A stretch of DNA of 18,019 nucleotides from Candidatus Iainarchaeum sp. (GCA_021158055.1 JAGGVJ010000036.1:1-18019); one strand, 5' to 3'. Positions 99-12,042 are shown, numbered from the stretch's first letter. The notes: a model not told the origin generated them from the sequence alone. Made by a program: numbers and translations.

Positions 99-2813
99 AT
101 GACAATCTCCAAAGAAAAACAACAAATAATCAAAACCTCAGGTAACGTCCTGATAACAGCCAACCCGGGAACCGGTAAAACGTACCTTTTAGCCGCCAAA
201 TACATCTCTTTAATAAAAAAAGATAATTTAAACCCGGAAGACATCTTGTGCCTGACTTTCACAATCAAGGCAAAGCAGGAGATGGAAGAGCGGATCATTG
301 CGTTTCTTGAGGAAGAGGGATTAAACATTAATATTTCAAAGATGAATATCCACACTTTCCATTCGTTTGCCTTGGATAATATTGAGGCAGAGGAAGTGTC
401 GTCAAGCAATTTGTTGCGGTACGTTGTTTTTGATTATATTCGCGAGCACGAGCTTTTGAATTACTCTGATGACTATTTGCTTGAGACCATTGTCCCGTCA
501 ATTGAAAACCACATCAGTTACCTGAAAAACTTCGGGATCCTCCCGCAGGATATTGAGAAGGGCAAGGTGGTGCCTTTCCTGAAGGAAATGAAGAGTTATT
601 CGGTTGACGACCTGATTTTGTTTCTTGACGCGTTCATCGCGATCTACAACCAGTACGAGTCTTCGAAAAAACAAGGGACTTGCGATTACGCGGACATGCT
701 CTTGCAGTTTTTGGACCAGAAAAACAATGAAAAAACAATTTCAAAAAACGAAAAACCCTCTAAACAATTCAAGTACGTGCTGATCGACGAGTTGCAGGAC
801 GTGAACAGGATTGAAGCGGAAATCGCGCTGAAAGTCGCCGAGAACTTCTTCGCGGTAGGGGACAAGAAGCAGGCTATTTTTGGGTTTCAAGGAGGGTCTA
901 TTAAGAACTTTGATCTGTTTTCAGACGCGACAAAGTTCGTGCTGTCCGAAAACAGGCGGTCTACCCAGAATATCCTTGATTTCGCAAAGACAGATTACAT
1001 TAACAGAACACAAGACGAAACGCAAAAACAAGACGTGAAAGAATTAAGGAATTCAGACAACACAAAAGGGGAGAAAGTCACAGTCATTGAGTCAGTGAAA
1101 AAAGAAGTCCCTCAATTGCTTGCAGAGTTATGCAGGGCACACATTGATGAAAGCAAAGAAAAAAGCAAAGAAGAAAACAAGACAAAAAATAAAAAAATTG
1201 CAGTCATCGCACGGACCAACACGCAAGTGGCAAGCTTTTCCAGGTATTTGTCAAGCCAGGGAATAGAGCATTCCTCGACTTCAGTGCAGAGCTCAAGGGA
1301 CGCGCGAAAACATCTGCTTGTGTACCTTAAAGGAATTTTAAGCAATGACATCGAGGACGTAAAAGCTTGCATGTTCACTCCTTTTTTCCCTTCAGGCATC
1401 CGGACGGCTTTTGAGCTGGCCAAAGAATATGAATTGTCGCTTGAAAAAGTGTTTGAGGTTTGCCCTGAGTTCAAAAAAACTCGGGAATCGATCAAGACAG
1501 TGAACGACATTGACCTGCTGTTCAAGAACACCTTGCTTCCGGTTGCGTCCACTTGCGGGAAAGGGTATTTTCTGGCCATTGTCCAGTTGCAGAACCTGCT
1601 TGTTGAAGCGATGGACGCGGTTGATTCAAAACAGCTGATGGATGTCTTTTCTTACATCAATTCAGCAGACCAGACATTGGACGAGACCGCGGTGGAAAAA
1701 GACATCGTGATTACAACCGTGCACAAGTCAAAGGGAAGGGAATACGACCACGCGATTTATGTCCCGAGCAAGACCAGGAATAAGCAGGATTTTGTGAAGG
1801 AAATAGTTCACGCTGTGCTGTGCTCAAAGGGAATCGACGCGTCAATCGAGCTTGAAGAAGAAACCCTGCGGATTGATTTTGTCGCGTATACGCGGGCGAG
1901 AAAAAAGCTTGTGATAATAGCTGAAAACGCACACGAATACCTCAATGATTTCAGCGAGGTGAAAACAGTTGAAGCAACTGAAGAATCAGCGCAGTCAACA
2001 GAAGAAAGGCTAAGACGCGCGTATTCTTTGTTCTTACAGGGAAACGCAACGGATGCAGGTAAATTGCTTCACGTTGAATCCGACTGGCTCAATCCGTTTG
2101 TTGAGGATTATTTCACCGCGTTAAAGCATGTCTCTTTCAGCGGTCTGCCAAAAGAGAACCATTCGTATGAGTACCTTAAAAATCAGGTTCTTCACATCAG
2201 GAGTTATTCAAAAGAAATGGATTTTGGGAACAAGGTCCACAAATGGGCGGAAGACATACTTGACGGCAAGGAAGTGACTGACCAGCACCCGACGGTTGAG
2301 AACATCAAAAAAATTCACAGCAGTATTTTAAGCAGCGGGTTTAAGGTTGAAAGCGTGGAGGATTCGTTCAGGGTAAGACTTTCAGATTTAACCGGTGAAA
2401 AAACAAGTTTGCTGTTCAAGGGAAAAATAGATGCAGTATACAAGAAAGAAGACAAATACTTGATCGTTGACTGGAAGTCAAGCAAAAAAGCAGATAGTGC
2501 GAGTGAATACAGACAGCAGCTTGAAATCTACAAAAGGATGTTTGCGCTGAAAAACAATGTCCCGCTTGAGAATATCAGCGTGGCGATCGGGTTTGTGGCG
2601 CTTCGAAACACAATCAACGACGGCGAAATAAATGGCTTTTTTGACGACAAGCAGCCGGCAAAATCTTCATTTAATACAGTGAAAAAAAGAATCGACAGGT
2701 TTTTGGAATGGCAGCAGGAACCAGGGGTTTTCCTTGAAGAATTGTTCAGCAAGCCGCAGGAAGAGCATTTGTGGCAAGCGTTAAAGGAAGAGTTTGAGCT
2801 TGGTTCTGAATGA
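99..2813 (+). CDS. UvrD/Rep (SF1A) ATP-dependent DNA helicase fused to a C-terminal PD-(D/E)XK nuclease (AddA/AdnA-like architecture)
   Basis: Walker A ANPGTGKT, motif Ia LTFTIKA, TFHSF, Walker B LIDELQD, VGDKKQAIFGFQG, ENRRS, TVHKSKGREY and VAYTRARK. C-terminal nuclease motif GKIDAVY..IVDWKS..QLEIY. AGAGG lies upstream of the ATG. Confidence 0.93.
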   Translation: MTISKEKQQIIKTSGNVLITANPGTGKTYLLAAKYISLIKKDNLNPEDILCLTFTIKAKQEMEERIIAFLEEEGLNINISKMNIHTFHSFALDNIEAEEVSSSNLLRYVVFDYIREHELLNYSDDYLLETIVPSIENHISYLKNFGILPQDIEKGKVVPFLKEMKSYSVDDLILFLDAFIAIYNQYESSKKQGTCDYADMLLQFLDQKNNEKTISKNEKPSKQFKYVLIDELQDVNRIEAEIALKVAENFFAVGDKKQAIFGFQGGSIKNFDLFSDATKFVLSENRRSTQNILDFAKTDYINRTQDETQKQDVKELRNSDNTKGEKVTVIESVKKEVPQLLAELCRAHIDESKEKSKEENKTKNKKIAVIARTNTQVASFSRYLSSQGIEHSSTSVQSSRDARKHLLVYLKGILSNDIEDVKACMFTPFFPSGIRTAFELAKEYELSLEKVFEVCPEFKKTRESIKTVNDIDLLFKNTLLPVASTCGKGYFLAIVQLQNLLVEAMDAVDSKQLMDVFSYINSADQTLDETAVEKDIVITTVHKSKGREYDHAIYVPSKTRNKQDFVKEIVHAVLCSKGIDASIELEEETLRIDFVAYTRARKKLVIIAENAHEYLNDFSEVKTVEATEESAQSTEERLRRAYSLFLQGNATDAGKLLHVESDWLNPFVEDYFTALKHVSFSGLPKENHSYEYLKNQVLHIRSYSKEMDFGNKVHKWAEDILDGKEVTDQHPTVENIKKIHSSILSSGFKVESVEDSFRVRLSDLTGEKTSLLFKGKIDAVYKKEDKYLIVDWKSSKKADSASEYRQQLEIYKRMFALKNNVPLENISVAIGFVALRNTINDGEINGFFDDKQPAKSSFNTVKKRIDRFLEWQQEPGVFLEELFSKPQEEHLWQALKEEFELGSE

Positions 2814-3418: not shown

Positions 3419-3541
3419 TTATTTGTGTTTTAAAATTAATAAATCTGCCCTATTTTTTGATAAGGAATCGAGATCATGCATTTTACGGGATTTAAGTTCT
3501 TGAAGCAGGTCTTTGCTGACTTGAATTGATGTTGCATTCAT
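3419..3541 (-). CDS. 40-aa ORF, antitoxin/ribbon-helix-helix-like N-terminus, possibly a truncated remnant
   Basis: Hand translation: MNATSIQVSKDLLQELKSRKMHDLDSLSKNRADLLILKHK*. The TSIQVSKDLLQELK strand-helix pattern resembles small archaeal antitoxins. It is below the ORF-track size cutoff. Confidence 0.45.
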   Translation of the reverse strand: MNATSIQVSKDLLQELKSRKMHDLDSLSKNRADLLILKHK

Positions 3542-3580
3542 GGCAAGTATGTAAGTTTTTATCGTGCGTAAATATTTCAG

Positions 3581-4207
3581 TTACATAAAATAAACTGTTT
3601 TTGATATTAATTTCCCTTCCAGCAGATTATTTTTTACTTCGTATTTGCGCCCGAATTTTTCAAGCTCTGTCAAGTCAAAGTTTACGGGTATTCTTAAGAT
3701 GACTTTTGAAAAATGCTTAAATGCAAGTTTCAGTATGTCTTGTCCGTTTGGCGAAAAATTTTCAAGCTTGAAACTTTGAAGAGCAGCGTAGTCCGGACCG
3801 CCCCAAGGCGGGTCTAAAAATATGGCTTCTGCAGATATTTTTGGCGCTTCTTTAAAAAAATCCCCGTGAATGAATTCAATTTTGTCCTGTACCTGATATA
3901 TTTCGGAATTGTTTTTCGCCATTTTCAGCCGGTTTTCATCAATTTCAATCAGATAAACTTTTTTGCAATATCTGGCAAATGCAATTGAATTGCCCCCAAC
4001 ACAGCCAAAAGCGTCAACAATCGTATCGCAGTTAATTAATTTTGCCTGTTTTAAAGCCACTTTTTCAGGGGTAACGGAAAATAACGCGGTTTTATCAATT
4101 TGGATTCCCTTGTCAAACTTTGAAAAATAAAGATATCGTTTATCTCAGTATCTCTGCAATTCTTTGCCGTATGGGCATTTATTTTTATCAGCGTTAGAAT
4201 TTGCCAT
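3581..4207 (-). CDS. Trimethylguanosine synthase (TGS1)-like RNA cap guanine-N2 methyltransferase, interrupted by an in-frame TGA at 4145-4147 (pseudogene or recoded)
   Basis: The frame of ORF 3581..4060 extends to an ATG at 4207: MANSNADKNKCPYGKELQRY*DKRYLYFSKFDKGIQIDKTALFSVTPEKVA. TGS1 motifs present: RY..FS.FD.GI..D, FSVTPEK.A, VDAFGCVGGN, GDF and FLDPPWGGPDY. Confidence 0.9.
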
Positions 4208-4298
4208 TTAATTTTCTTGTTTATTTTTGTATTGAATTTTGACTTGAAAAACTTTTTTGTGCCTGATAAAATTGCGCTCATTTTAACCTGTCCATCTT

Positions 4299-4889
4299 TC
4301 AATCTTTGATGGTTTCTTTTTTTCTCGACTCAAGTTCCTCGCGTGCCATCTTTTTAGCGGTTTTTGAATAAAAATAATCCGCGTGTTCAATTTTTGAGTT
4401 CAACTGGCCATAACGGGCTTCAGGCGAAATATTGCTTCTGGTCACGTCTGCTTTAAAACCGACACTGGAAAAGCACCATAATTTATCGGCATCCCGGACC
4501 AGGCCATCTTCTTTTGAAATGAACCCTTTCCTGGTGTCATGTTCTGAAATTATTTCCAGGATATCCCTGACTGAATCAATGGGGTAATGCACTTTATTCA
4601 GGATCTCTCCCGCAAGTTTTACGCCTTTTTCCTGGTGCTCGTATCTCACAGCCAGTATTTCTTCAGCTGTTGCGCCTTTTTTAAAGATGATAAATCTTTT
4701 TTCACGGGGCATCTGGCTCCAGCCGACATCATGCAGGATTATTGCTGGTATGATGATATTTTCATTTCCCTTTTCCACTTTCATTAATTTTTTTACGTAG
4801 CTGAGCAGAATTTCAATGTGCCCTTTATCATTGCGCTTATTCTGGTAGGGTAAAGCGAGATCAAAAATTTTTTCAAATATTTCTTTCAT
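4299..4889 (-). CDS. HD-domain metal-dependent phosphohydrolase
   Basis: H..(PAIIL)HD(VGW)..H..EHD..DADKL pattern of the HD superfamily. Confidence 0.85.
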   Translation of the reverse strand: MKEIFEKIFDLALPYQNKRNDKGHIEILLSYVKKLMKVEKGNENIIIPAIILHDVGWSQMPREKRFIIFKKGATAEEILAVRYEHQEKGVKLAGEILNKVHYPIDSVRDILEIISEHDTRKGFISKEDGLVRDADKLWCFSSVGFKADVTRSNISPEARYGQLNSKIEHADYFYSKTAKKMAREELESRKKETIKD

Positions 4890-5031
4890 GCATCATCTAA
4901 AGAGTTTACAAATACTTAATGCATTAGTTTTTATTTCGTTTAATGGCGGAAATATGCACTGAAAGACATCAGTCATTGTCTAAGCAATAAACCCGGTTTT
5001 CGCAGGGTGTTCGCCCGGCCGTTTTACATTG

Positions 5032-5382
5032 TTACATCCTGCTATTTTCCCTGATGCTGTTGATGATCCCTGTGATATCCCCGCTTGCTTTCCAGAACGT
5101 TACGGAAACCTCATCAAAGGGGTTGGCGTGGATGTGAAATTTATGCGGGGGAATGTCAATTGATTCGCCTTCATTTAAAACGACTTCTTTGACTGCTTCA
5201 TTTTCTTCAAATAGTTTCATGACACATTTTCCCGTAAGTTGAAACAATGATTTGGGAACAGGCCGGTTGTGTTTTGATAATTCTTGTTTAGGATCCAGTT
5301 CCAATGTTCCGACACTTAACTTTTCATCAGAAAAAGCAATCATGATACTGCCTTGCGCTATATTGTATTTTTCGAATTCCAT
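5032..5382 (-). CDS. Cupin-domain protein
   Basis: LELDPKQELSKHNRP (motif 1) and LNEGESIDIPPHKFHIHAN (motif 2). The expected motif-1 Glu appears as Lys44. Confidence 0.8.
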   Translation of the reverse strand: MEFEKYNIAQGSIMIAFSDEKLSVGTLELDPKQELSKHNRPVPKSLFQLTGKCVMKLFEENEAVKEVVLNEGESIDIPPHKFHIHANPFDEVSVTFWKASGDITGIINSIRENSRM

Positions 5383-5531
5383 GATATCACTTGATATGAT
5401 TTGATGTGATTTGATTTAAATAGTTTTGTCAGACAGTTGGTGGGCGACCAACCAAATGCAGTTTCAAAGAAATCGCGGGGTTTGCGGATGGTACCAAAAT
5501 ATTTTTATAACAAGCGAATCAAACGATTATC

Positions 5532-5981
5532 ATGACTGAAAAAATCAAGGTTATCTGTGCTAATTTAATAGAAGATAACGGCAAAATACTTCTTGTAAGG
5601 GAAACAAAAGAAATAGCAAGAGACAAGTACAACTTTCCGGCCGGAAGGCTTGAGGGAAACGAAAGCATAGTTGAAGGGGCTGTCAGGGAAGCAAAAGAAG
5701 AAACAGGGCTGGACGTCAGACCCGTGCGAATCATCGGGATTTACCAGAAACCAGATTCAAAACAAGAAAATAATGTAACAATAATAGTCTTTAGATCAGA
5801 AATAGTGTCGGGAAAAATAACCGCGTCAGAAGAACACCCTGAAGTAAAGTTTTTTTCGCGCGATGAAATCAGCGGGTTAAACAAAAAAGGGTCGCTTAGA
5901 AGTTCGTATATAACCAAGGCAATGCAGGACTCTGACAACAAGCAGGCTGTCGACCTTTCTTTCCTAAAAATACTGGAGTGA
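5532..5981 (+). CDS. Nudix hydrolase
   Basis: Intact Nudix box GRLEGNESIVEGAVREAKEETGL. TTTTTATA box upstream at about 5502-5509. Confidence 0.92.
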   Translation: MTEKIKVICANLIEDNGKILLVRETKEIARDKYNFPAGRLEGNESIVEGAVREAKEETGLDVRPVRIIGIYQKPDSKQENNVTIIVFRSEIVSGKITASEEHPEVKFFSRDEISGLNKKGSLRSSYITKAMQDSDNKQAVDLSFLKILE

Positions 5982-6024
5982 AAATACCACTGCAAAGAGC
6001 CGTTTGCTGCAAAATTTTAGCATT

Positions 6025-6510
6025 TTATCTGTCTTCGATGAACTGCGCGATTTTTTCAGGCACAAGATGTTTCCACTCAATGTTTTCTTTGATGTTCTGC
6101 CTTATTTTTGTGGAGCTGATCCCGTCAAAGATTTCAATGTCCTGCACTTTGTATCCTTTTGACAAAAAAAGCGCCTTTACAAAAGCGTTTCCTGTGAAAA
6201 CCACCTCAAAGTCAGGGCATGCGCGCTCAATGCTTTCCATCCATTCGCCGTGGCTTTGGCAGTCTTTGATTGGGACAATAAAGTATCTGTTTCCGGGTAT
6301 TTTTGCATCTTCAAGCGCGGCTTCAATCATTTCAGTCCTTTGCTTTGCGCTGAAAGGGTTTTTGGAAGTGTTTTCATCCTGAGCGCTCCCGATTATAATA
6401 ACCAGTTTTTCACACGCTTCAAGGATCCTTTCAACTGCCTTCAGGTGGCCGTTGTGAAACGGCTGGAATCTTCCTATAAAAAGCCCTGTTTTTGGTTCTT
6501 CTTTTTCCAT
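6025..6510 (-). CDS. nadM: Nicotinamide-nucleotide adenylyltransferase (archaeal NadM/NMNAT)
   Basis: GRFQPFHNGH (HxGH), IGSAQ, NPFSAKQR and ISSTKIR. Start is ATG 6510 or GTG 6519. Confidence 0.92.
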   Translation of the reverse strand: MEKEEPKTGLFIGRFQPFHNGHLKAVERILEACEKLVIIIGSAQDENTSKNPFSAKQRTEMIEAALEDAKIPGNRYFIVPIKDCQSHGEWMESIERACPDFEVVFTGNAFVKALFLSKGYKVQDIEIFDGISSTKIRQNIKENIEWKHLVPEKIAQFIEDR

Positions 6511-6599
6511 CAAAGACACAAACCTGTTAGTTTCTTTTAATCTTTTTCTTTTGCAGCCTGCTCGATTTTGCCGTCTGTTTCACAGTCTTTTGCCACTTT

Positions 6600-7517
6600 T
6601 CATTTCAGGCATTCCAGCATGATTGCTTTTTGCATGTGGAGCCGGTTTTCTGCCTGGTCAAAAACAACGCTGTGCCTGCCGTCAATAATCTCGGCAGTCT
6701 GCTCAAAACCGCGCATTGCAGGAAGGCAGTTCATGAAGATGAAGTCCGGCTTTGCGCCCTTGACTATCTCGGAATTCACCTGGAACCCCAAAAACTTCTG
6801 CACACGCTTTTCCTTTTCGCTTTCCGGGATGTGATAGCTCATCCAGCTGTCGGCGTAAACAATGTCAGCGTCTTTGATTGCTTCTTTTGCGTCCTGGGTG
6901 ACTGTTATTTTTGCTTCTGAAACCTGTGCAATGGCATTTGCCTTGTCAACGATTTCCTGTTTCGGTGACAACTCGGACGGACAGCCCACAGAAACATCTA
7001 TTCCCATGTGAGCGCACCCGATGATCAGCGAGTGGGTCACGTTGTTGAACCCGTCTCCCAAAAAGCACAGCTTCAACTTGTCAAAGCGTCCTTTCTTTTC
7101 CTTGATTGTCAAAAGGTCAGACAGGATCTGCACGGGGTGAAAGTCGTTTGTCAGGCCGTTTATCACGGGAACCGACGCGTTTTGTGCCATTTCAACCAGG
7201 TCATTGTGTTCGAAAAGACGCGCCATGATTATGTCAACGTACCGCGAGCTCACTTTTGCGGTGTCTGCCACGGTTTCCTTGCTTTTGAAAGGGCTTGACT
7301 GGCTGTCTATCACAAGCGTGTTTCCGCCCATGGACTGCATTCCCACGTCAAAGGAAATTTTTGTCCGCAAAGACGGTTTTTCAAAAAGCATCATCAGTGT
7401 TTTTCCCGTCAACGCGCCCGAGTACACCTGCGGGTTTTTTTTGATGTCGCCTGCAAGCTCGACAAGATGCAGTATTTCTGTTTTGTCCAGATCAAACAAA
7501 GAGAGTATCGATTTCAT
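6600..7517 (-). CDS. argF: Ornithine carbamoyltransferase
   Basis: FEKPSLRT carbamoyl-phosphate loop, HPVQILSD, GDGFNNV, NCLPA and DQAENRLH. Co-oriented downstream of argG with a GGTGG SD. Confidence 0.93.
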   Translation of the reverse strand: MKSILSLFDLDKTEILHLVELAGDIKKNPQVYSGALTGKTLMMLFEKPSLRTKISFDVGMQSMGGNTLVIDSQSSPFKSKETVADTAKVSSRYVDIIMARLFEHNDLVEMAQNASVPVINGLTNDFHPVQILSDLLTIKEKKGRFDKLKLCFLGDGFNNVTHSLIIGCAHMGIDVSVGCPSELSPKQEIVDKANAIAQVSEAKITVTQDAKEAIKDADIVYADSWMSYHIPESEKEKRVQKFLGFQVNSEIVKGAKPDFIFMNCLPAMRGFEQTAEIIDGRHSVVFDQAENRLHMQKAIMLECLK

Positions 7518-7625
7518 TTCATGCCACCAACCAACTGTTTAAATAAAAGGTACTTGTTTGTAGTTAACAAAGTTTCCCTAATGTTTAGTTTTTGCCGATT
7601 ATTTATTTCTTTGCAATTCAAGTTT

Positions 7626-8843
7626 TCATTTCCTGAGTGTAAGGCGCAGTGCATTGAGTTTGATGAATCCTTTTGCATCTTTGGGGTCATAGTCGCCAAG
7701 ATCATCCATGCTTGCAAGGTCCCAGCTGTAAATATTGCTTTGGGATTCCCTGGCGGTCACGAACGCGTTTCCTTTGTAAAGGCTCATCGTCACTTTTCCG
7801 TCGACGTTTTCCTGGCTCTTGTTTACCGCAGCCATCAAAAAGTCCATTTCAGGGCTGAACCAAAACCCGTTGTAGATAAGTTCGGCGATTTTCGGCATGA
7901 GCATGTCTTTCAAGTGAGTCACTTCCCTGTCAAGCACGAGCCCTTCAAGGTCGCTGTGCGCTTTCCAGAGAATTGTTCCGGCAGGGGTCTCGTACACACC
8001 GCGCGATTTCATTCCCACGAAACGGTTTTCAACCAGGTCCATCCTTCCGATCCCGTTGGCTGAGCCAAGCTCGTTCAGATACTGGAAAAGCTCAAGACCG
8101 CCGGTTACGGTGTTTTCCAAGCCGCCGCCTTTGCTTAAGTCTGTGACTTTGACCGGAATCCCGCTTTTGAACTCGATCTCTATTTTTGTTTCAGTGTCAG
8201 GAGCGTTTTTCGGGGAAACAGTTTTTTTGAACATGCTTTCCTGCGCTTCAAACGCAGGGTCTTCAAGCTGCCCTGCCTCGTAGCTTATGTGCATTAAGTT
8301 GTCGTCCATGCTGTAAGGCTTTTCAAACGTTGATTCGATCGGGATTCCTTTTTCCTTTGCATAGTTTATGAGGTCGCTTCTTCCTTTGAACTTGTCAGTG
8401 AATTCGGAGTCTTTCCACGGGCTGATTATCTCAACTTCAGGCATCAGTTGCATGTAGACCATTTCAAACCTTACCTGGTCGTTTCCTTTTCCTGTCGCGC
8501 CGTGGGCGACGATGTTTGTCCCTTCAAGTTTTGCGATTTCAATCTGCTTTTTTGCAATCAGGGGTCTTGCAAAAGAAGTCCCGAGCAGGTATTTTCCTTC
8601 GTATACTGCGTTTGACTTTAACCCCTCGAAAATGTATTTTTCAACAAAATCTTTTTTCAGGTCCTCGACATAAACCTTGCATGCGCCGATTTCCAATGCC
8701 TTTGCCTTTGCTTTTTCAAAGTCGTCTTCCTGCCCGACATCGCCGATGAAGCAGATTACTTCGTATCCCTTGTCAATCAGCCATTTCAGAATCGCTGAAG
8801 TGTCAAGTCCTCCGCTGTAGGCCAGCACCACTTTTTCACCCAT
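7626..8843 (-). CDS. argG: Argininosuccinate synthase
   Basis: [24 protein letters not shown] and [25 protein letters not shown] at 8850-8856. Confidence 0.97.
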
Positions 8844-8911
8844 TGATGTCCACCTCTTGTTTTTGTTTTAAGTTTTTAGTTTGATAGACACTTAATTGCC
8901 TGAAGAGTAGT

Positions 8912-8945
8912 TATAAACACAGTGGCTGTATAAACATAGTGACTG
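8912..8945. promoter_or_regulatory. Tandem 17-bp direct repeat containing TATA-like boxes in the divergent argG / ACT-regulator intergenic region
   Basis: tataaacacagtggctg (8912-8928) and tataaacatagtgactg (8929-8945), 15/17 identical. Each reads TTTATA on the minus strand. Confidence 0.6.
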
Positions 8946-9064
8946 AAACAAAAAACAAAACCGAGAATTGTTCTATTTGAAACATCTACATCAATTGTCG
9001 GGTTATTTGTCATTAAATCCGGGTTCCAGTTAAGTTTATTTGTATCAATGCCCATAATTGGTTC

Positions 9065-9694
9065 ATGGTCACTACAAGCGAACTCACGGAAAAATTCATC
9101 AACGAGCACGTTTCTGTCAAGGACTGCCTGAAAAAAGGCCTTTTAAACTATTCGGCTTTGTCGCGCTTGATTGCAGGCGAGCTTGACATTGAAAAGGAAA
9201 CATCAAAAGAAGCGATTTTGGTCGCGGCAAGGCGGTACAAAGACAAGATGAAAACCAGGCCGCTTGAAGATTCTGTTTTCAGGCTTTTTGAGGAAAGCGA
9301 CATAGAGATAAAGAACAGGGTTTATGTCTACACGCTTGAAAAAAGCATTTATCCGGACGCGCTGATTGACCTTGAAAAACAGGTAAAAAACGACAAGTGC
9401 ATGGTTTTTTCAATTGAGGGAACAAAGACGATCACGGTGATGATCCAGAAAAGATACAGGGATCTGGTTGAGAAGTCGTTTAAGGGATCCATACTCAACA
9501 TAAAAAAAGAATTGTCGCTTGTGACCATCACCAGTCCGGGAATAGAACAGACAAGGGGTGCATTAAGTTACCTTACCGGGCTTTTTTTCGAAAACGGGAT
9601 AAACATACTTGAGTTCATGAGCTGTTATGACGACACGCTCATAGTGATCGATTCAAAAGACGTTGAAAAAGCGATGAAGTTCTTGAATTTTTAG
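9065..9694 (+). CDS. Archaeal ACT-domain protein, predicted regulator of amino-acid metabolism
   Basis: N-terminal helical region (DCLKKGLLNYSALSRLI..EAILVAARRY) and C-terminal ACT fold (SPGIEQTRGALSYLTGLFFENGINILEFMSCYDDTLIVI). Divergent from argG-argF. Confidence 0.8.
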   Translation: MVTTSELTEKFINEHVSVKDCLKKGLLNYSALSRLIAGELDIEKETSKEAILVAARRYKDKMKTRPLEDSVFRLFEESDIEIKNRVYVYTLEKSIYPDALIDLEKQVKNDKCMVFSIEGTKTITVMIQKRYRDLVEKSFKGSILNIKKELSLVTITSPGIEQTRGALSYLTGLFFENGINILEFMSCYDDTLIVIDSKDVEKAMKFLNF

Positions 9695-9749
9695 GTTCCG
9701 GCTTTTAATCTTTGTTTTTGCTTTTATTTTTTACCTTTAACTTTTACTT

Positions 9750-10928
9750 TTATGCAAGATCTATAGTCGGCATTTTATATTCTTCTATAAAATGGACTCC
9801 GATGATATTTGCAATCTCAGGTATTTTAGATGCATCAATCAGGGTTCTGATATTTGCGGTTGTCGTGGTCGTACCGCCAAGAGCGTTTATTTTATCAGCT
9901 ATATCTGTCTTGTCTTCACCGCTGAAAACCAAGACAGTTAAAAGTATATTTCCTGTCCTGTCCAGTGAATCTATCAGATCAGGCTGCATTTTGTACGCCG
10001 GCTGATATATTCCCACCCATTTGACGCTATCCAGGTTCTGGACATTATTCTTTGCAGTTTCACTCATCTTTACAATAAATGCATGTTCCGGGATATAGCC
10101 GTGCATTGTTCCGCCCAGAGAGATGATGTCGTTTTTGTCTTTGTCGTATACCGAGCCTTTGAACTGGACAATATAATACCCGTCGGCTTCAGGAGAATAA
10201 GAGGGAACGCAAAGATTTTTTGGTATGTGGATCCCAATGTGATCCGAATCAATTTCGGAAGAGGAAAATGCTGTAAGTGCCACTAACTTTATCGTTTTGG
10301 GAATTTTGATAATACAATTTTCGTTCGTTTTTTCTCCGTTTGCGTATGCTTTTGATTCTAAATTTGGTTCAGCGTGCTTTATTCTTTCGTCTTGTTTAAG
10401 TTTGCAGATCCATTCAAATTCCAGACCCTCAGGCACTTCTACGTGAACACAGTTGCAAAGGTCCCAATATTTTTTCACGTTCAAGTCGTATTCACTCATC
10501 ACATCTCTGATCTCTTTCTCTGGAAATTTTTCATCAAAACTTACGATTATGCTGCCGGGAAGATAGCTATAATTTTTTGACTTTAATTCATCAATGCATT
10601 GTTTGACATTCACTGCACTGCATTGGTTATTTATGCACGCAGAAGCTCAAATTTCAGTATTTAACGGACACGCTCTGCTGCAGGTACTGACTCGCTCTAA
10701 ATGCCGATGGTGTATGTTGACAGCTATATTCGGCGGTGAACAGCATTCTCCTCCGCTGATTAATATGCAATCGTCATTTCTTTCGCAATATTTTGAATCT
10801 TTATATTTTTCAGGTATCTGATTTGAAGAGGTATCGCTCCAAATCCAGGATCCTCCGATCAATATGATTACAATGACTAAAATTCCGGTCAGGATTTTTG
10901 TTTTTGAATTCATTTTGATCCTTCTCAT
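9750..10928 (-). CDS. Membrane-anchored Cys-rich protein with subtilase (S8) prodomain-like modules and no catalytic domain; single frame interrupted by TGA at 10647-10649
   Basis: ORFs 10647..10928 and 9750..10613 are in the same frame and joined by 11 sense codons (*ASACINNQCSA). N-terminal TM helix; C..NDDC..CC..C..C..CINNQC; YLPGSIIVSF..HAEPN and YYIVQFKG..GYIPEHAFIV..VKWVGIYQPAYK resemble S8 propeptides. Confidence 0.72.
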
Positions 10929-11051
10929 AATCTATTGATTACCTTGTTATTTATAAAAAGTTTGGTGGTGGGTAATATTTCATTTAACACTTGGGATTAA
11001 GAAAAATTTGCGGAACGAAGTAGGCGGACTTACAATTTCCGATAATTTGTG

Positions 11052-11078
11052 TGATTAAAAGAAGTCTGATTAAAAGAA
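11052..11078 (+). repeat. Direct repeat tgattaaaagaa x2 (period 15)
   Basis: Exact 12-mers at 11052-11063 and 11067-11078. Confidence 0.6.
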
Positions 11079-11124
11079 CCCGCGCTTTTTGAGTTCCCTC
11101 CGCCGCCGAAAATTTAGTCCTGTT

Positions 11125-12042
11125 TTATTTCTTTTTTATCAGGAAATATCCCGCGAATAAGATACCTGCCGCACCCACCCATTGCACTGGAGACAAAATT
11201 TCCCCCAGCAGGATATAAGCAAATAGCGCTGAAAACAATGAACCTGAGAGGAAAAATGTAGTCGTAATAAACGGGCCGACTAATTTTATCGCCCTGTATT
11301 GGCAGATCACAGACAGGAAATATAAAATCGCAGTGAGTACAACATAAAACAGACCGCTGAATAATGCGTTTATGCTTTGATGACCCAAAATGAAAGGAAT
11401 AAACATTACTATTAATAATGCACTTAAACAAACCCTGAAGAAGATGACCATATCTGTTGATATACCGTCCATGATTTTCTTGGCGAAAACATTTTGAAAT
11501 GCCACAATCGAGGCAACAAATATTATCAGCAAGTCACCTAATTGAGGAATTGTCATAGCCCCGTCAGTTATCAATAAAAATGCCCCGATCAGCATCATGA
11601 ACATAAAAAATATCGAACTTTTGGGGTATTTTTCTTTTAATAAAATATAAGCAAGAGGCAATACAAACAAGGGGGTTAACCGGGTAAGGAATCCCGCGTT
11701 TACTGCTGTTGTAACATTTTGCCCCAGAAATAAGATTAAAATAGCTGAGGCGGAAACAACCCCGAGAATAACCAAATCCCTTAATTCATATCTTTTGATA
11801 GATTTCAACTTCTTTAACTGTGGCGAGAAGAAAATAAGTGAAATAAAAATGACTATGATGCTCCGTGAAAATGAAAAGGATAACGGGTCCAGACCAAAAT
11901 TTAAGCCCATTTTTTGAATGACTATCAGCAGACCATAAAACAGGGAAGTTCCGGTCAGATAAGCCAATGCGATTTTATTAATTTTTCCTATGTATAAACA
12001 ATTAAATCTATTTATTTTAAGCTTTCTTTTATCAAGCGGCAT
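11125..12042 (-). CDS. EamA/DMT-family transporter
   Basis: About 10 hydrophobic helices in two repeats, with TTAVNAGFLTRLTPLFV..AYILLKEK and AYILLGEILSPVQWVG. Start is uncertain: nearest ATG is 12042, the promoter- and domain-consistent start is ATA at 11991, and the track start at 12156 overlaps the divergent gene. Confidence 0.88.
   Translation of the reverse strand: MPLDKRKLKINRFNCLYIGKINKIALAYLTGTSLFYGLLIVIQKMGLNFGLDPLSFSFSRSIIVIFISLIFFSPQLKKLKSIKRYELRDLVILGVVSASAILILFLGQNVTTAVNAGFLTRLTPLFVLPLAYILLKEKYPKSSIFFMFMMLIGAFLLITDGAMTIPQLGDLLIIFVASIVAFQNVFAKKIMDGISTDMVIFFRVCLSALLIVMFIPFILGHQSINALFSGLFYVVLTAILYFLSVICQYRAIKLVGPFITTTFFLSGSLFSALFAYILLGEILSPVQWVGAAGILFAGYFLIKKK

Follow-up and report, generated by a model that had tools for sequence, protein, structure and literature searches.

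Introduction

Variants of the tryptophan (Trp) tRNA with the anticodon CCA, tRNA-Trp(CCA), that are able to read UGA are described for eukaryotes and bacteria in a published source, in which the Hirsh suppressor mutation is named as G24A (PMC13092985). Fungi are reported to edit mRNA in a way that repairs premature stop codons, and mRNA editing that depends on TadA is reported for bacteria (PMC6160140, PMC12214031). Archaeal selenoprotein genes and the nascent nonsense pseudogenes of reduced prokaryotic genomes complete the set of described systems with which we compare a stretch of DNA from Candidatus Iainarchaeum sp. (JAGGVJ010000036.1, 18,019 nucleotides, analysed over its whole length and referred to as the window). 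Two genes on its minus strand, one for a Tgs1-like methyltransferase (site 1) and one for a membrane-anchored or secreted protein with a cysteine (Cys)-rich module (site 2), are each interrupted by a single in-frame TGA codon. An earlier note, made from the window alone, had drawn attention to these codons and had considered gene decay as well as readthrough and RNA editing. Here, we report that both are probably ordinary nonsense mutations of recent date, which have hit two dispensable genes in a DPANN-type archaeon with a small genome.

Results

A TGA codon at a conserved tryptophan position of a Tgs1-like methyltransferase gene

The first of the two genes and its TGA codon are located as follows:

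3581..4207, minus strand: 208-codon gene of the Tgs1-like RNA cap guanine-N2 methyltransferase family (PF09445), interrupted by a single TGA
4145..4147, minus strand: in-frame TGA at codon 21 (TAC TGA GAT), in an invariant Trp column, motif Y-W-D/N-x-R-Y

The frame extends from ATG 4207 to TAA 3583..3581 without any frameshift, with the TGA at 4147..4145 in between, and the read-through product of 208 amino acids matches PF09445 with 104.9 bits (E 4.3e-30, cut-off 22). Homologs are numerous (66 with E <= 0.001 among 174 candidates), and the nearest full-length one, P0003, shares 79% identity across 100% of the 208 amino acids. When the query, read as Trp at the TGA, was aligned with 17 homologs, Trp occupied the column in question (W21) in 18/18 rows. 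A query with the single protein found no close relatives on metagenome contigs. Eighty metagenome loci were fetched by an alignment query, 79 of which are readable at the W21 column. The pattern W-x-x-R is present, with TGG as the codon, in 58 loci; inspection by eye identified Trp in a further eight and Phe, Tyr or His in 13, while one locus ends short of the column. A stop codon at this position was found in none of the 79 readable loci. Given the invariant Trp column and the TGG codons of the metagenome loci, the ancestral codon at site 1 was TGG (Trp), which changed to TGA.

The first in-frame start after the TGA is GTG 4060, 28 codons downstream. It is from here that gene callers report a remnant of only 159 amino acids (P0004), from which the conserved N-terminal motif is missing. 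As an observation in its own right, one metagenome relative of the methyltransferase (L151) has an in-frame stop two codons ahead of the conserved Trp (KVY*YWQSRN), which could mark either the boundary of a gene or a further broken copy.

A second TGA codon inside a cysteine-rich module

The second gene lies further upstream on the same strand:

9750..10928, minus strand: 392-codon gene whose product is membrane-anchored or secreted, in the same frame on both sides of its single internal TGA
10647..10649, minus strand: in-frame TGA at codon 94 (ATT TGA GCT), inside the Cys-rich module

Here, too, no frameshift occurs between ATG 10928 and TAA 9752..9750, with TGA 10649..10647 lying between them, and the existence of two in-frame TGA codons in otherwise intact frames, as first described from the window, is hence confirmed for both genes. 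The read-through product of 392 amino acids consists of an N-terminal hydrophobic anchor, the Cys-rich module, a domain resembling the N-terminal propeptide of fervidolysin (fervidolysin-N-pro-like, PF22148, residues 117-189) and a C-terminal domain. Its C-terminal half is 49-63% identical to the proteins P0070-P0081. Matches among class-level relatives are restricted to two of 40 genomes and are weak in both.

Residues 1-194 were used for an exhaustive search, which yielded 106 proteins (E <= 0.001). In about 11 of them the best stretch extends from the N-terminal anchor past codon 94, and in about nine others it begins at residues 78-93 of the query and crosses codon 94 into the N-pro-like domain. 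In the alignment of these homologs the Cys-rich module reads Y-C-E-x-D-x-D-C ... C-C ... C ... C ... C-(I/V)-x-N-x-C, and its final C-x-x-N-x-C motif, which holds the last two Cys residues, lies four codons past the TGA. P0166 and P0107 combine the Cys-rich module and the N-pro-like domain within a single chain, and the 217-amino-acid open reading frame (ORF) of a relative is likewise continuous across site 2. Since homologs run across codon 94 and keep the motif beyond it, the TGA interrupts one gene and does not mark the end of one gene before the start of the next. The residue at the position of the TGA varies across the aligned homologs (Y,S,G,F,I,L,Y,L,N,H,T,V), and neither Trp nor Cys is present in any of the 13 that cover it. 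As the column is variable, the ancestral codon at site 2 cannot be named. The proposal that both TGA codons are one A-to-G step away from an original TGG therefore holds for site 1 and is possible for site 2; an origin from Trp is indicated by the alignments for site 1 only.

Contig-level support for both TGA codons

X1 and X2 are sequencing runs on two samples of one study that were assembled separately and are flagged as possible sources of the genome bin to which the window belongs. Contigs from both cover the two TGA sites, with zero differences at either site. Records 2 and 7 of X1 show no other letters compared with the window, and record 9 of X2, which spans 3500-11469, has three (5042, 5044 and 6424), none of them at a TGA site. 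X1 has a word depth of about 11, and X2 one of about 17.5. For a third run, X3, from a cold seep, the word depth amounts to just 0.6 in the bin that contains site 1 and is nil at site 2; no piece of it is listed there, and the run is uninformative on the sites. None of the runs listed as containing this DNA is recorded as an RNA run. Truncated ORF products are present in the protein collection on four contigs for site 1 and on two for site 2. Both in-frame TGA codons are real at the level of contigs, which may hide minority alleles. The agreement of X1 and X2 argues against a one-off assembly error, but as evidence it is not free of effects of the sequencing chemistry.

The host genome and its use of TGA as a terminator

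The window is the entire contig C2 of a metagenome-derived genome bin of 1,147,527 bases in 45 contigs, with a G+C content of 42%. The bin is 94.9% complete and 0.05% contaminated, and it is the sole genome of its family in the collection searched. The bin is archaeal; it encodes two proteins with eRF1 domains (aRF1 and Pelota) and contains many intron-bearing tRNA genes. Genomes of its class-level relatives have sizes of 0.4-1.5 Mb. We treat the host as a presumptive DPANN-type archaeon because of these small-genome relatives and because the argininosuccinate synthase encoded in the window has its nearest records in Nanoarchaeota (79%), Candidatus Woesearchaeota (77%) and Candidatus Micrarchaeota (76%).

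Terminal stop codons were counted genome-wide for frames of at least 150 codons. TGA is the commonest terminator (539 frames), followed by TAA (478) and TAG (155). Matches to Pfam profiles stop just short of terminal TGA codons, as seen for eRF1_3 of Pelota (profile position 105/106) and for RuBisCO (299/299). An ordinary terminal TGA in the window served as a control:

6600..6602, minus strand: terminal TGA of the ornithine carbamoyltransferase gene; the OTCace match ends at profile position 155/157, four residues before the TGA

It had also been noted that G never follows the terminal TGA of nine genes in the window. This is correct, the next base being T,A,A,A,A,A,T,A,C, an outcome with a chance of about 0.23 if G follows in 15% of cases. 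It does not extend to the genome, in which G comes next in 82/539 long frames (15%), and the Pelota-like gene on contig C28 is among those that end in TGA-G. G stands after both internal TGA codons (2/2, p = 0.11), which is unremarkable because G is the first base of 33.8% of the codons in long ORFs. With the contrast between internal UGA-G and terminal UGA gone at the genome-wide level, context-dependent readthrough of UGA-G is left without that support.

Other interrupted genes in the genome

In order to be counted as a junction, a stop codon had to be flanked on both sides by stop-to-stop segments that were each the best of six frames in a hexamer model built from 449 long ORFs, with at least 20 codons per segment and at least 100 codons per pair. 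A total of 319 junctions were obtained (98 TGA, 36 TAG and 185 TAA), including both sites in the window. A screen with a fixed hexamer threshold, which had returned 162 junctions (81 TAA, 51 TGA and 30 TAG), missed both window sites and was replaced by the best-of-six-frames procedure. Junctions were then read through with X at the stop, and a crossing was scored when a single Pfam domain match spanned the X; the first confirmations were picked by eye from the list, before the systematic batch. None of the TGA junctions, all 98 of which were tested, was crossed by a Pfam match above cut-off; one MFS_1 match across a TGA junction remained below it (23.1 bits vs 33.4), and three of these junctions were scanned again with longer flanks. 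Two crossings were found among the TAG junctions (36/36 tested), in genes of the HycI-like and Ser_hydrolase families, and two among the TAA junctions (45/185 tested), both in NUDIX genes. A parallel screen for changes of frame gave 13 candidates. ThiC is a clear case, an AAA_33 domain cut at position 97 of its 143-position profile is a possible second one, and the other 11 are neighbouring genes or gave no hit. The lesions outside the window are:

C16:79027, plus strand: in-frame TAA in a NUDIX hydrolase gene (50 bits), within the Nudix box
C36:878, minus strand: in-frame TAA in a second NUDIX hydrolase gene (45.3 bits), inside the NUDIX domain
C19:33569, minus strand: in-frame TAG in a gene for a HycI-like protease (23.7 bits, cut-off 23), followed by G
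C9:3447, plus strand: in-frame TAG in a gene of the Ser_hydrolase family (24.2 bits, cut-off 22), followed by G
C21:27430, minus strand: in-frame TAG shortly ahead of a GNAT domain, a borderline case with the match beginning four residues past the stop, followed by G
C3 near 6143 (L039:5842-6623), minus strand: ThiC gene split over two frames, with profile positions 174-328 in one and 321-416 of 420 in the other

The split of ThiC is either a genuine frameshift or an indel error. Taken together, the genome contains at least seven in-frame stops (two TGA, two or three TAG and two TAA) and at least one frameshift, in genes with accessory functions throughout: two NUDIX hydrolases, a HycI-like protease, a serine hydrolase, a GNAT protein, ThiC, the methyltransferase and the secreted protein. 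Such a mixture is the picture expected of low-level ongoing gene loss. It is also the finding, a blend of TGA, TAA and TAG accompanied by a frameshift, that the earlier note had named as speaking against the more exotic readings, and its view that a genome-wide genetic code 4 is unsupported agrees with the 539 long frames ended by TGA and with 0/98 TGA junctions inside a Pfam match.

Two further observations may be added. The Ser_hydrolase match at C9:3447 begins only at position 69 of the 172-position profile, and the gene may carry further lesions upstream. At C36:85492 (minus strand), TGA-G ends a gene resembling archaeal prepilin peptidases; an in-frame hydrophobic stretch follows, as though the last membrane helix went on, and after it comes an open frame of 829 codons. 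This TGA may be an ordinary end or belong to a third interrupted gene.

Recent nonsense mutations as the favoured explanation

Early pseudogenisation, already put forward as the simplest explanation when the window was first read, is favoured by the invariant Trp column at site 1, the mixture of lesions in the genome and the standard decoding machinery. According to this explanation the two TGA codons would be recent nonsense mutations, fixed as far as the contigs show. aRF1 would terminate translation at each of them, and the full-length proteins would be absent or made only in traces. That each gene carries a single lesion would follow from the young age of the mutations, and both TGA codons would be part of a low background of gene decay that also yields TAA, TAG and a frameshift elsewhere. 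The stops exist and interrupt conserved sequence, lesions of other types occur in the same genome and no dedicated decoding machinery was found in it; from this we infer the loss of function and the recent age of both mutations.

Several points weigh against this explanation. The two window genes have no damage other than a single stop each, which is TGA in either case. UGA is the stop codon most prone to near-cognate reading and the one most easily misread by tRNA-Trp, and intact genes with a single TGA are also what tolerated readthrough would look like. Two interrupted genes within 18 kb compare with about 0.1 expected from seven stops in 1.15 Mb, a density that is a lower bound and is set against a window chosen after the fact. 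G follows five of the seven in-frame stops genome-wide (p = 0.048, post hoc). The scores of the HycI-like and Ser_hydrolase matches scarcely exceed their cut-offs, and the TAA junctions tested comprise only those without a start codon within 12 codons past the stop. Finally, the Pfam test missed both TGA codons of the window, which lie outside the stretches covered by Pfam. The test is thus insensitive, and 0/98 does not exclude further genes interrupted by TGA.

Possible leaky decoding of UGA by tRNA-Trp

The alternative that survives best, albeit as an unlikely one, is leaky decoding, in which tRNA-Trp(CCA) reads UGA via a C:A mismatch at the third position, so that some full-length methyltransferase, and perhaps secreted protein, is made and the TGA alleles are nearly neutral or regulatory instead of null. 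At site 1, which falls exactly on a Trp column, near-cognate insertion would restore the native protein, and both genes are otherwise intact. A gene for tRNA-Trp with the anticodon CCA was found on contig C42 (15481-15634, plus strand) by a pattern search that allowed long introns. When folded after removal in silico of an intron of 80 nucleotides, the tRNA has an anticodon stem of 5 bp that includes a G-U pair at 27:43, and by manual numbering it carries U11:A24; both features could favour misreading. U11:A24 is the state that the Hirsh suppressor mutation produces in Escherichia coli. Several lines of evidence stand against leaky decoding, however. The anticodon stem has five pairs and not four, and the column at site 2 is never Trp in the aligned homologs. 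TGA junctions inside a Pfam domain are absent (0/98), while TAA and TAG do occur inside such domains, and TGA-G itself closes 82 long frames, that of Pelota included. Moreover, the survey in PMC13092985 covers bacteria only.

A more specific version, according to which tRNA-Trp(CCA) with U11:A24 and the weak closing G-U pair might misread UGA to a useful extent, supply a reduced amount of methyltransferase and represent an early, ambiguous stage on the way to UGA-to-Trp reassignment, appears slightly less likely still. In the literature that was accessible, our search found no report of UGA-to-Trp reassignment in archaea, nor of readthrough or reassignment of UGA in DPANN.

The gene for tRNA-Trp was missed both by aragorn and by the Rfam tRNA search. 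Its intron sits after position 37 and includes the sequence ATGATGA, which resembles a C box. In archaea, there are known cases in which a tRNA-Trp intron encodes a box C/D guide RNA. Among the other tRNA genes, two for tRNA-Lys on contig C33 (32109-32204 and 36451-36545, both plus strand; anticodons CTT and TTT) have an insert in the D-arm region and not at the canonical position 37/38. A tRNA-like sequence at C36:16065-16175 (minus strand) has well-formed acceptor and T arms, and contains about 37 bases in excess; its anticodon arm could not be placed. When deletions were scanned with aragorn, numerous anticodons in conflict with one another resulted, no Rfam alignment was obtained and the sequence was left unparsed; our guess is tRNA-Asp, as CTGTC is present in it and the tRNA list otherwise lacks Asp.

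The possibility of a sequencing or assembly error

Compared with leaky decoding, an artefact is a distinctly more improbable explanation for the TGA codons. In this case the cells would carry TGG or another sense codon, and the TGA would have arisen through an error of sequencing or of the consensus, or because the assembler had picked a minority allele. The genome is, after all, a metagenome bin of 45 contigs with modest word depth, repair of either site to TGG would make a GGG run, the bin itself may have been derived from X1 and X2, and rare variants are lost from contigs. Set against this are the X1 and X2 contigs, which cover both sites without difference, the truncated ORF products on four and two contigs, and the lack of a homopolymer at either site in the present sequence. 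A systematic consensus error in GGG runs, once offered as part of the simplest explanation, is unlikely in view of the agreement between the X1 and X2 contigs.

The EamA gene and the proposed restorative RNA editing

A third lesion, an EamA start codon damaged to ATA at 11991, had been added to the two TGA codons, and repair of all three by a single mechanism had been proposed. The positions are as follows:

11125..12042, minus strand: gene for an EamA-family transporter (PF00892), 305 codons from ATG 12042
11989..11991, minus strand: ATA codon, Ile56 of the open frame, an internal codon with no stop between 12156 and 11991

The frame is open from 12156 to TAA 11127..11125 and contains in-frame ATG codons upstream of 11991. 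The nearest of these, 12042..12040, lies 17 codons ahead of the ATA and gives a protein of 305 amino acids. PF00892 is matched in two stretches, corresponding to two EamA repeats (E 4.8e-29, 101.8 bits). Open frames of class-level relatives encode about 300-325 amino acids, and most of the matches begin at query residues 57-70. With an open frame and an upstream ATG at 12042, the ATA is an internal Ile codon and no damaged start needs to be assumed; as a result, only two of the three sites are left for any common mechanism.

Restorative A-to-I editing of the mRNA would convert UGA to UGI, read as UGG, at both TGA sites, and a single edit would indeed restore Trp at site 1. This is highly improbable. 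Deaminases of the cytidine deaminase (CDA) fold (PF00383 and PF14437) gave 0 matches in the 94.9%-complete genome, whereas the controls rang in 12/14 genomes. The ADAR-type profile PF02137 also gave 0 matches; its control rang nowhere, which makes this result uninformative. Furthermore, the supposed third site is no lesion, neither TAA stop of the NUDIX genes falls on a Trp position when the motif is read, and the G-A-G context of both sites differs from the TadA target. The context of that target is U-A-C-G.

Selenocysteine and genome-wide reassignment as possible alternatives

A search for tRNA-Sec (RF01852) gave nothing above the cut-off in this genome (best score 32.2 bits vs 47), the matches being ordinary tRNAs. 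No UCA anticodon was found among the tRNA genes that could be read, a set that is incomplete and leaves C36:16065-16175 aside, and aRF1 contains NIKS and Y-x-C-x-x-x-F, the usual motifs of the release factor; the suggested check for a tRNA with this anticodon or for an altered aRF1 thus lends no support to unusual decoding. Although site 2 lies in a Cys-rich module, where selenocysteine (Sec) could replace Cys, recoding of TGA as Sec or its genome-wide reassignment (of the code 4 or code 25 type) is so improbable as to be practically negligible, given the lack of a tRNA-Sec above cut-off, a Trp column at site 1, a column at site 2 that lacks Cys in all 13 aligned homologs covering it, the termination of 539 long frames by TGA, the domain matches that end there, and an aRF1 with the usual motifs. 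The evidence says that TGA is not read differently in this archaeon.

Further observations on the window and the genome

The X3 run from the cold seep is mostly 90-95% alike to the window. One of its contigs joins position 5376 to position 6033 with 49 other letters between them, and the NUDIX gene at 5532-5981 is therefore missing in that relative. Elsewhere in the genome, contig C12 encodes a Cas12f1-like/TnpB TNB domain (around 1590-1919, minus strand), and contig C21 (around 36262-36774, plus strand) a D12-class adenine methyltransferase followed by a DpnII-type restriction endonuclease.

Discussion

Single nonsense mutations in a metagenome bin can mimic recoding when only one 18-kb window is read, and it is a whole-genome count of the three stop types and of frameshifts that settles the question of recoding versus decay. 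For the annotation of the window this means that the methyltransferase and the secreted protein are to be treated as disrupted genes, and that the EamA gene is intact and starts at 12042. Leaky readthrough, if true, would give the first indication that UGA can be decoded ambiguously in an archaeon; it is not favoured by the present data. Editing by a deaminase, which was to explain three sites at once, finds no deaminase-fold protein in this genome and one site fewer that is a lesion at all. We thus return to recent nonsense mutations in dispensable genes and compare them with the described systems.

Archaeal selenoprotein genes share with the two window genes an in-frame UGA in an open frame. 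They differ in that no tRNA-Sec above cut-off was found here and that the columns are Trp or variable, and never Cys. Stop-repairing A-to-I editing, in the sexual stage of fungi or by bacterial TadA, resembles site 1 insofar as one A-to-G change at the RNA level would restore Trp, yet here no gene with a deaminase fold was found and the sequence context is unlike the TadA target. From the reassigned codes (tables 4 and 25) the genome is set apart by the fact that neither a UCA anticodon was read nor any tRNA-Trp(CCA) found whose anticodon stem has 4 bp. Somewhat closer is Zinderia, in which UGA is read with tRNA-Trp(CCA): here, too, UGA occurs at a Trp position, and only a tRNA-Trp with the anticodon CCA was found. 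In contrast to that system, the anticodon stem here has five pairs, UGA is the commonest terminator and in-frame UGA is not recurrent (0/98); moreover, the survey concerns bacteria, whereas this genome is archaeal (PMC13092985). The closest likeness is with nascent nonsense pseudogenes in reduced prokaryotic genomes. There as here, an otherwise intact conserved gene contains one premature stop, accessory functions are hit, and other stop types and a frameshift are present in the same genome. We see no difference of substance, with the loss of function in our case being deduced from the sequence. The finding of two TGA codons is an ordinary one.

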